DNA of 64,000 nt from Podarcis vaucheri (lineage: Eukaryota), in assembly GCA_965113315.1 (NCBI GenBank), contig OZ220366.1. The stretch is one strand, 5' to 3'. Each line of letters opens with the position of its first letter. Within the stretch, counting starts at the first letter, position 1. Positions 43,172-45,769 of this stretch are shown here, piece after piece. The translations under genes were made by a program, and so were the position numbers. The notes beneath the pieces were generated by a model. That model was not told where the DNA came from and searched no databases. It worked only from the letters and a program-made list of their open reading frames with translations.

Positions 43172-44052
43172 AGCTTGTAATTAAATAAAATCAGCAACAG
43201 AAATTTAAATCACAAAAAGTAATTATCCAGTGTATTTCAAGTGCATTTTTCCAATATATAATTCCAATATTCACAATTATATAAGCAAAATCCAAATTTC
43301 TTCTGAATATATTTAAATAACATTTCAAGTATATTTATGGAATGGTAGAAATAGAACAAGCAATATATTTGAAACAAAAAAAATGTAAACTTCTTTTTAG
43401 CTTAGACACTTCAAAAGACAAGTAACAAAAGTACCATGATAAAATCTACCTTTTTTTTAAGCGGTATCTTCTTGAGCAGAAAATGTCCTGAAGTATCCAA
43501 AATGGCAATTTAACTTCTTTTCACCAAATCACAAAACACTAACACCCACAATTTCAAAGACAATGTGAGATCACAATATTCCATACAATTTTTTTAAAAA
43601 AATGTACAGGGGAAGAGTTGGGACAGTTGTGGTTTGTTTTGTTTCTTTTCCTATCTAACGGTTGTGGTTATTTGGGTGGCATCTTCAGATTCTCTCTTAC
43701 TCGCACAAAAATCCCGGCCTCGTTATAATCCATTGGTCTGGTTTCTAGGCGGAGTGGTCACAATCAGGCTAAAAACGGCAGCCCATATTGCATTTCCCCT
43801 GGTGATAATCATACACGGTTTCGTTTCGTTTTGTTTTCCGGGCAGGCTTTTAAAACCGGGATACCGGCAAGAGTCATAATACTTGCAGTTGGCTTGGTGT
43901 GCGTGTGCGCGCAGGCGGGCAGCCTCTTCCCCGAACGCAGGGCGACGTTTGCCCCGTAAAACCCAGCAGAATCCTCCGAAGAGAAAGGCAGTTTTTTCTT
44001 TTGTTTTCGCGGGGGAGAGAAGAATAGTGTCAGGCCGCCGCTGGCTGGCCCT

Positions 44053-45132
44053 CTAAAGTTTCTCCAAACTTTTGGGGTTGGTGAGGATCTCCCTGGCCAG
44101 CCGCCACGTTTGTTTGGCCGCGTTTTCGAGGGCCGAGTGCGGCTTGCCCTGGAAGAGGTCTAAGTTGGGCAAGAAGTAGTGCGGGCAGCGCCTGCACTGC
44201 AGGCACGAGATGAGCTGCAGCAAGATCCCGTTGAGCCGGTCGCCCAGGCACGACTCGTCCCAGTCCGACTCGCGGGGATGCTTCTCGCACTCGTACGACA
44301 CCAGAGTCTTCATGTGGTAGTTGTTGAGCGGCTGGCCGGGCAGCTCCAGGTGGCGATCCCGCAGCGTCTTGAGGATGGAGAGGCACTTCTTGCGGCAGCC
44401 GCCCATCTGCAGCCGGTTCTCGGCCTCGGCGAACTGCAGCACCCAGGCGTCGCTCTCGGCCGAGCTCTGCTTGCCGGCCAGCGAGTGGCACTCCTTGGAG
44501 AGCAGGTTGAAGCCCTCGGCCTTCACCTCGGCCACGCGGTTGGGCCCCGGCCAGGGGATGTGCGGCAGCGGCCAGTGCGCCGCGCTGCGCGGCCAGATGC
44601 CCGTGCACTTGAAGGCGGGCGTGATCTGCACCACGTAGCGGTCGCGGATGCGCAGCTTGACCTCGCTGGTGTCCGCCACCATCTTCACCACGTCGCGGTA
44701 GCTGCACTTGTCCACGGCCTGCGCCACCAGCGTCTGGAAGCGCGAGCGGATCTTGCGCGCCGACAGGTAGCCCGAGGCCGTGATGAACTCCACCCAGAGC
44801 GACATGCTCCGCTTGCGCCCGTCGCTCAGCTTGAGCACGGCGCAGCCGGGCAGCGAGCCGTCGTCGACGAAGTTGAAGACGCCCATCTGGTTGAGGTAGA
44901 GCACCACCTCGAACTCGGTGGGCGAGATGACCTCCAGGCCCTCGTAGCGGTTGTCCATCTCGTTGAGGGAGCTGATGAAGCGCGGCTCCTGCACCTCCAC
45001 CTCCTTCAGCACGTCCGACACCACCTTGCACACCTCGCGGATGGTCTTGGCGATGGCCGCCTTGCGCGCCTGGCACTTCTCGTTGTAGTATTTGTTGAGG
45101 TGGTACACCAGCTTGGCCTGCGCCGCGATCAT
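44053..45132 (-). CDS. MAB21L1: Mab-21-like 1 (cGAS-like nucleotidyltransferase fold), intronless, 359 aa, nested antisense in an NBEA intron
   Basis: AAC-ATG at 45132 through TAG at 44053; MIAAQAKLVYHLNKYYNEKC...LTNPKSLEKL; residues YNEKC, LNEMDNR, ECHSLAG and SLEKL distinguish it from MAB21L2; NBEA host fits. Confidence 0.99.
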   Translation of the reverse strand: MIAAQAKLVYHLNKYYNEKCQARKAAIAKTIREVCKVVSDVLKEVEVQEPRFISSLNEMDNRYEGLEVISPTEFEVVLYLNQMGVFNFVDDGSLPGCAVLKLSDGRKRSMSLWVEFITASGYLSARKIRSRFQTLVAQAVDKCSYRDVVKMVADTSEVKLRIRDRYVVQITPAFKCTGIWPRSAAHWPLPHIPWPGPNRVAEVKAEGFNLLSKECHSLAGKQSSAESDAWVLQFAEAENRLQMGGCRKKCLSILKTLRDRHLELPGQPLNNYHMKTLVSYECEKHPRESDWDESCLGDRLNGILLQLISCLQCRRCPHYFLPNLDLFQGKPHSALENAAKQTWRLAREILTNPKSLEKL

Positions 45133-45281
45133 GTTGGGACAGAGATCCGGGTTGTAGACCGGAGTCTCGCAGTACGCGCTGGGATCCAATGCGGCTGCTA
45201 AGGCGGGAGCCAACTTCAGACGGGAATCCGGACGCCCGGCGCGGGGAAGCGGAGCCCCAGGCCGCCCAAAGGCGCTGCTCT

Positions 45282-45302
45282 CGCCGCCGCCGCCGCCGCC
45301 GC
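45282..45302 (-). repeat. (GCG)7 trinucleotide repeat flanked by CAG units in the MAB21L1 5' leader
   Basis: Minus strand GAGCAGCAGAAAGAGCA(GCG)7AGAGCAGC. Confidence 0.9.
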
Positions 45303-45769
45303 TGCTCTTTCTGCTGCTCGGCTCCTCCTCCGCTCCGAGGCTCGCTCGCAGGCTGTCTTTCTCTCTCCTTGCAGGCTGGAGGTGGACACTTCTGCCCCGG
45401 ATAGATCTCGGAGTCTTTCCCAAACACGCACAGGCACACAAACCCCTGGGTTTTTTGTTGGAAAGGATCCTTCAGGGAGCAGAGGAAAGCATGGAAGAGC
45501 TGCAGTTAAAAAAAGGGAAGCAAAGTTTGCGCCCAGTTGCAGCCAGGCTCCCACCAGTCAAAATAATAACACATCGGAGCAGGCATTTATTTTTCTCCTG
45601 GAGTCACCACGGGGTGTGAGTGTGTGTGTGTCTGCGCGCAATGTTGGTAGTCAGATGGGGGGGGGCCGGATTTCTGGGTGTTTCTCTTTCTCTCTCTCCC
45701 CCTCTCTCTCTGTGTGTGTCTCCCTGTCTCTGAGTGTGTGTATATGTCAGGAGAAGCTTGCTGTTGGTT

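Follow-up and report, generated by a model that had tools for sequence, protein, structure and literature searches.

Does translation of MAB21L1 begin only at its AUG, or also at near-cognate codons further upstream in the same frame? MAB21L1 and its paralogue MAB21L2 share a cGAS-like fold, and both are disease genes of eye and brain development; we addressed this question at the MAB21L1 locus of Podarcis vaucheri, within a window of 64,000 nucleotides (contig OZ220366.1, assembly GCA_965113315.1), by which we mean the whole stretch of DNA that was analysed. We put at roughly 80% the probability that the MAB21L1 frame carries a conserved coding extension upstream of its ATG, which would yield UUG-initiated longer proteoforms beside the 359-aa AUG form. 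Both initiation at the UUG codons and a stable long protein are what we infer from the constraint on this extension and from human predictions made independently of it.

The MAB21L1 locus and its open frame

The annotated-type MAB21L1 coding sequence lies on the minus strand at 44053..45132 (359 aa plus stop, uninterrupted; ATG context cccaacATGa), and its product is 100% identical to named MAB21L1 records such as P0010 (Pfam PF03281 and PF20266, precomputed). The sole other strong match in the genome is a second MAB21 copy of MAB21L2 type (L002). A sequence-only reading of the window had described the frame as open from 45471 to the ATG, which was borne out: the stop-to-stop frame (minus strand, 45471..44053) comprises 472 codons, of which the 113 upstream of the ATG at 45132 are stop-free, contain no in-frame ATG and are continuous with the annotated coding sequence. 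The 27 codons preceding the ATG encode LAPALAAALDPSAYCETPVYNPDLCPN. This upstream portion falls into three minus-strand segments: a core 19-codon extension, running from TTG(-19) to the codon preceding the ATG (45133..45189) and common to MAB21L1 and MAB21L2; a less constrained, MAB21L1-only addition of 8 codons (LAPALAAA) between the two TTG codons (45190..45213); and a GC-rich remainder of 86 codons without paralogue similarity (45214..45471). The extension contains neither Lys nor Arg.

The open frame alone is unremarkable, and weak evidence in a GC-rich leader. Shuffles of the MAB21L1 leader stayed open over 19 codons in 2929/5000 cases, over 27 codons in 2603/5000 and over 113 codons in 184/5000; because open frames are this common in shuffles, the case for an extension rests on conservation instead. 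The whole 113-codon frame was rejected as a true extension, since it is unconserved and the corresponding human open stretch has 36 codons, and the segment 45214..45471 is probably non-coding leader. A second minus-strand frame, open for 491 codons (44030-45505) and spanning both gene and leader, is probably a shadow of GC content.

Two near-cognate codons in start context

Two in-frame TTG codons, at 45213 and 45189, had been singled out for their strong context, and both do carry a purine at -3 and G at +4; among the in-frame TTG, CTG, GTG and ACG codons of the last 30, they are the only ones that combine these features. At least two strong-context in-frame near-cognate codons occurred in 46/5000 shuffles. 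CTG(-29) was also considered as a start and dropped for its poor context. TTG(-19) (gccgcaTTGg; 45187..45189, minus strand) is likely the ancestral near-cognate start, giving a candidate 378-aa, 43.1-kDa form, and TTG(-27) (ctgaagTTGg; 45211..45213, minus strand) is likely a second one, giving a candidate 386-aa, 43.8-kDa form. Under a leaky-scanning model, initiation at UUG(-27) and UUG(-19) would be of low efficiency and the remaining ribosomes would reach the AUG, so that one MAB21L1 mRNA would yield three products of 386, 378 and 359 aa (43.8, 43.1 and 41.0 kDa). Several upstream AUG ORFs, which end before the extension, may contribute further control.

Coding-type divergence from MAB21L2

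The MAB21L2 copy reads LDPSTYCESPVYSPDVCPN preceding its ATG. A likeness to MAB21L2 in this region, which the sequence-only reading had suggested, proved to be real, with 15/19 residues identical between the paralogues. Across codons -19..-1, 10 are identical, 5 differ synonymously (including an AGC/TCC serine swap) and 4 differ non-synonymously, all conservatively (A/T, T/S, N/S, L/V); the alternative two frames give synonymous to non-synonymous ratios of 1:8 and 0:8. The paralogues show 12 differences over these 57 nt, and when 12 substitutions were placed randomly, 4 or fewer non-synonymous codons arose in 0.245% of 20000 trials (mean 8.2), under a crude null (P about 0.002) that leaves out transition, CpG and other mutation bias; the observed BLOSUM score was never reached in 20000 random placements. 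The substitution pattern upstream of the AUG is of coding type. In the coding sequence proper, the residue is kept in 324/346 codons counted (13 codons excluded), and the tail is about as constrained as the core by this paralogue comparison (15/19 versus 324/346 residues).

Further upstream the resemblance fades. Codons -27..-20 show 3 synonymous changes relative to MAB21L2, all in Ala codons, and 5 non-synonymous ones, with no residue match above -22; codons -45..-28 keep 2/18 residues. When the two 1300-nt leaders were compared by blastn, a single strong match emerged, covering the last 66 nt (77% identity, E 4e-10; next 0.005) and beginning at the context of TTG(-19). Leu(-19) is encoded by TTG in both paralogues, and elsewhere TTG accounts for 3/41 and 0/45 Leu codons (coding parts counted). 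A near-cognate codon in start context thus appears to be conserved at the 5′ border of conservation. Because both paralogues carry TTG at -19, we infer that this start is ancestral and that the -27 start is a MAB21L1 addition.

Conservation across vertebrates

Among vertebrate-type proteins with residues before Met1 — a sample of protein records biased in that frameshifted or stopped orthologues cannot appear as extended proteins — 42/42 end in P-[DE]-[LVI]-C-P-N; 38 of these cover all 19 positions, two start inside and two are gene models that join inside. The peptide is kept in catshark, catfish, carp, guppy-type fish, newt, Xenopus, gecko, pigeon and sparrow, and likewise in sheep, bat, hamster and squirrel records. 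A set of 16 MAB21L1 rows reaching -27, from which lower starts, other-sequence joins, duplicates, insertions and the newt row were excluded, has 13/19 core positions invariant. Positions -21 and -20 are invariant in 16/16 rows and -24 to -22 are variable; invariance at -27..-25 is partly circular, because the rows were chosen for L-A-P at -27. Lys occupies -28 in 13/16 rows, consistent with A at -3 of TTG(-27), and identity among the 16 rows collapses above about -33. The last 27 codons had been judged protein-like in comparison with the leader further up, and the alignment agrees, conservation dropping above -27.

In ten records the first residue, written Met or Leu, falls exactly on the -19 Leu position, and in two on -27; P0155 and P0156 are fish-type gene calls whose first residue is Met at -27. 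Such starts presumably reflect gene callers accepting TTG. The codon itself was read in DNA for Podarcis vaucheri and deduced from Leu or Met in other species: TTG(-19) is present in both paralogues here and predicted for human MAB21L2, and TTG(-27) is present here and predicted for human MAB21L1. One 378-aa record with Met at -19, P0135, includes an NCBI rattlesnake gene model.

Three records contain in-frame insertions: P0150 (+1 residue), P0213 (+1) and P0013 (+22). The last opens on Leu at the -19 motif, and its 22 inserted residues, rich in His and Pro, separate the YCE and PDLCPN blocks. In a tree of 28 core proteins, P0013 groups with vertebrates, its branch being long and its support unsettled; our guess is that it comes from a jawless fish. 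In a frog record, P0214, the 27-residue extension is kept and Thr-Asn replaces Met1-Ile2; a misassembly, a pseudogene or a genuine loss of the AUG could each account for the missing Met1.

Invertebrate and metagenomic MAB21 proteins

In most invertebrate MAB21 proteins the start lies 0 to 9 residues above the equivalent Met. When the extension was aligned locally with 84 invertebrate upstream stretches, the best was equalled by 5/500 shuffles, and none survives 84 tests. An invertebrate-type MAB21 locus (L018:733-750) reads GCT TTG GAC CCC AGT (ALDPS) 18 codons above the equivalent Met; 20/500 shuffles score equally to this echo of the vertebrate start region, which is not significant among 84 tests. 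A degenerate DNA pattern of the vertebrate coding start gave 0 matches in metagenome contigs. A protein scan of the same collection recovered 63 loci, none above 82% identity and therefore apparently invertebrate, and the full motif was found in 0/60 anchorable metagenome MAB21 loci. Among 50%-cluster representatives, 3/150 matches listed align from query residue 1, all of them vertebrate-type. Since invertebrate proteins lack a significant match to it, the extension looks vertebrate-specific, and it would predate the MAB21L1/MAB21L2 split.

Human predictions and prior art

The extension had been taken to be unreported, which does not hold: human rows for it exist in a supplementary table of Fedorova et al. 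2022 (PMC9789052). Supplementary file 9 of that study places MAB21L1 and MAB21L2 among 60 genes with positive PhyloCSF upstream of the start, scored over 120 mammals (set median 156), and both genes also appear in supplementary file 13. For human MAB21L1, the open stretch is 36 codons, with a PhyloCSF of 228 and a predicted TTG start 27 codons up; for human MAB21L2, the open stretch is 20 codons, with a PhyloCSF of 292 and a predicted TTG start 19 codons up, so that there is little room for another start. The starts proposed here, at -27 for MAB21L1 and -19 for MAB21L2, match these independent human predictions from ribosome profiling, and the idea of a MAB21L proteoform longer by 19-27 aa gains support both from this coincidence and from the coding-type constraint. 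In the same tables ribosome-profiling support is weak (MAB21L1 rank 1950, coverage 40.9; MAB21L2 rank 4331, coverage 7.1), and the proteomics count is 0 for both genes. MAB21 occurs 0 times in the main text and neither gene is on the re-annotation list; the authors caution that coding-type evolution is no proof of non-AUG initiation.

These PhyloSET entries agree with our analysis in the genes, the TTG codons, the 27- and 19-codon lengths and the inference of a non-AUG extension; they differ in being table rows confined to mammals, as listed in the supplement, with no peptide or mutational test, whereas here the peptide is followed across paralogues and into shark, fish, amphibian and bird proteins. 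Two further sources do not name the genes in the parts consulted, namely the main text of Ivanov et al. 2011 (PMC3105428) and the text plus one supplement of a 2024 5′-UTR proteomics survey (PMC11317171). The UUG cases NTF3 and tNOX in the former likewise combine a near-cognate start, good context and coding-type conservation upstream, and the C1QL and TEAD families in the latter have a start common to paralogues, as do MAB21L1 and MAB21L2. Relative to these described cases, the two stacked UUG candidate starts are a feature of MAB21L1. A full-text search, with most subscription journals and bioRxiv supplements outside its scope, found no paper discussing a MAB21L extension. The prediction is therefore already in print as human table rows and appears to be unstudied. 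What is added here to the catalogued human entries is depth beyond mammals, a pre-split origin, a predicted unstructured tail by the pentamer contact, and a reading of the c.-68T>C variant.

Alternative explanations

The 57-81 nt could instead be conserved as a non-coding element (an RBP site, an RNA structure or a DNA enhancer), with the peptide as a by-product. Similarity does persist above -27, with P(-33) in 9/16 rows and S(-31) in 12/16, MAB21L2 is a developmental locus that has conserved non-coding sequence in its vicinity (title of PMC11511899), and human peptides were not detected in the Fedorova tables. Yet the paralogues differ at 12/57 nt with a residue-preserving bias in one frame only, PhyloCSF is positive across 120 mammals for both genes (PMC9789052), and the RNA fold has z-scores of -0.79 for the MAB21L1 stretch and +2.03 for that of MAB21L2. 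In single-sequence folds of the two paralogues, compared with shuffles, the two folds differed, and neither an unusual nor a shared fold was present; a conserved RNA structure, stabler than shuffles and common to both paralogues, was not found in these stretches. We consider a purely non-coding origin of the conservation very improbable. Even more so is a coding role through a spliced-in upstream AUG exon in place of UUG initiation. AG dinucleotides end at c.-82, -66, -63, -47 and -34, and five eukaryotic gene models (P0002, P0003, P0008, P0136 and P0137) appear joined from unrelated upstream sequence, but these models have no upstream sequence in common, and their disagreement fits gene finders reaching for an ATG. 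MAB21L2 has moreover been described as single-exon (PMC4897736), Fedorova et al. left out extensions overlapping annotated coding exons, and splicing would leave unexplained why a TTG in start context is retained in both paralogues.

A different possibility keeps UUG-initiated translation and shifts the function: the extension might work as a nascent peptide with a regulatory role, or as a tag for degradation, and so set the dose of the 359-aa form through stalling, start-site tuning or destabilisation. It is proline-rich (4/19 residues) and predicted to be unstructured, human data show footprints yet no peptides (PMC9789052), and loss-of-function alleles of MAB21L2 are reported to be dominant (PMC8238893), so dosage matters. 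The invariant Tyr and Cys residues together with the 22-residue insertion tolerated in P0013, however, suit a binding motif at least equally, and we regard such a regulatory role as improbable. Our preferred reading remains a conserved coding extension that would be translated from UUG into longer proteoforms.

Structure and possible function of the tail

An AlphaFold model of the 378-aa record built from 142 sequences has a mean pLDDT of 91, with residues 1-13 below 50 and without secondary structure; it supersedes an earlier run with 48 sequences (pLDDT 69.5). The spine helix begins at residue 17 of this model, three residues into the tail. A complex prediction of the extension with the core, in which alignments were unused, scored 0.26 against a mark of 0.34 and weighs neither way.

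The crystal structure of MAB21L1 (de Oliveira Mann 2016, PMC4897736) provides the natural comparison. It shares the protein core, the cGAS-like NTase fold and the N-terminal spine helix, and differs in that it appears to be without the extension, because its residues are numbered as in the AUG form. As described there, a pentamer contact is formed by I2, A6 and Y10, which rest against helices 11-12 of the adjacent protomer, the protein is monomeric in solution, and the crystal form is inactive, a conformational change being needed. The tail would attach beside the I2/A6/Y10 contact and would prolong the N-terminal spine helix that carries it, which may point to an effect on partners or oligomer state rather than on the active site. 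A Tyr/Cys/Pro/acidic stretch that is conserved yet unstructured suggests a linear docking motif, and we tentatively propose, at less than even odds, that the tail is a short motif of this kind (Y-C-E-x-P-V-Y-x-P-D-x-C-P) that alters partner binding or oligomer state. The broader statement, that all vertebrates make a UUG-started MAB21L1/MAB21L2 proteoform predating the gene split, with oligomer state or partner binding governed by its Tyr/Cys/Pro tail, is more doubtful still. If it were true, biochemistry on the 359-aa protein would have overlooked a functional form. The published structure and tagged constructs, as described in the reports, appear to be built on the AUG form, and the published blots consulted show constructs of about 41 kDa with the tag at the N terminus and cannot reveal a long form.

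Human variants and the upstream leader

Translation of the extension would also turn 5′-UTR variants such as MAB21L1 c.-68T>C, seen in a case of microphthalmia, into coding variants: the coding part would reach up to c.-81 in MAB21L1 and to c.-57 in MAB21L2, and a change at Met1 would abolish the short form only. Seese et al. 2021 (PMC8238893) describe a child with microphthalmia and coloboma who carries c.-68T>C and, in trans, p.Arg62Cys, and report no effect on uORF or RNA fold. Assuming human spacing as in the window, c.-68 falls on the middle base of the TTA Leu codon at -23 (45201-45199), and c.-68T>C would be a missense change, confined to the 27-codon form. Position -23 is among the most variable (L, Q, I, K and P in the 16 rows), and this putative effect offers a lead while falling short of an explanation. 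The MAB21L2 variant c.1A>C, classed as likely pathogenic, would leave the UUG form nearly intact, changing only Met to Leu; this classification suggests that the long form would be scarce or no substitute.

The leader of MAB21L1 holds several further elements. An upstream AUG ORF of 26 codons (45586-45506, minus strand), with a nested second AUG at 45574, would encode a Trp/Cys/Tyr-rich peptide, and a 6-codon uORF at 45492 lies in the MAB21L1 frame, with its stop at 45474-45472. A GGC repeat of ~7 units is found within the leader at about 45302-45282 of the window (minus strand); the 5′ UTR of human MAB21L1 contains a polymorphic CAG repeat.
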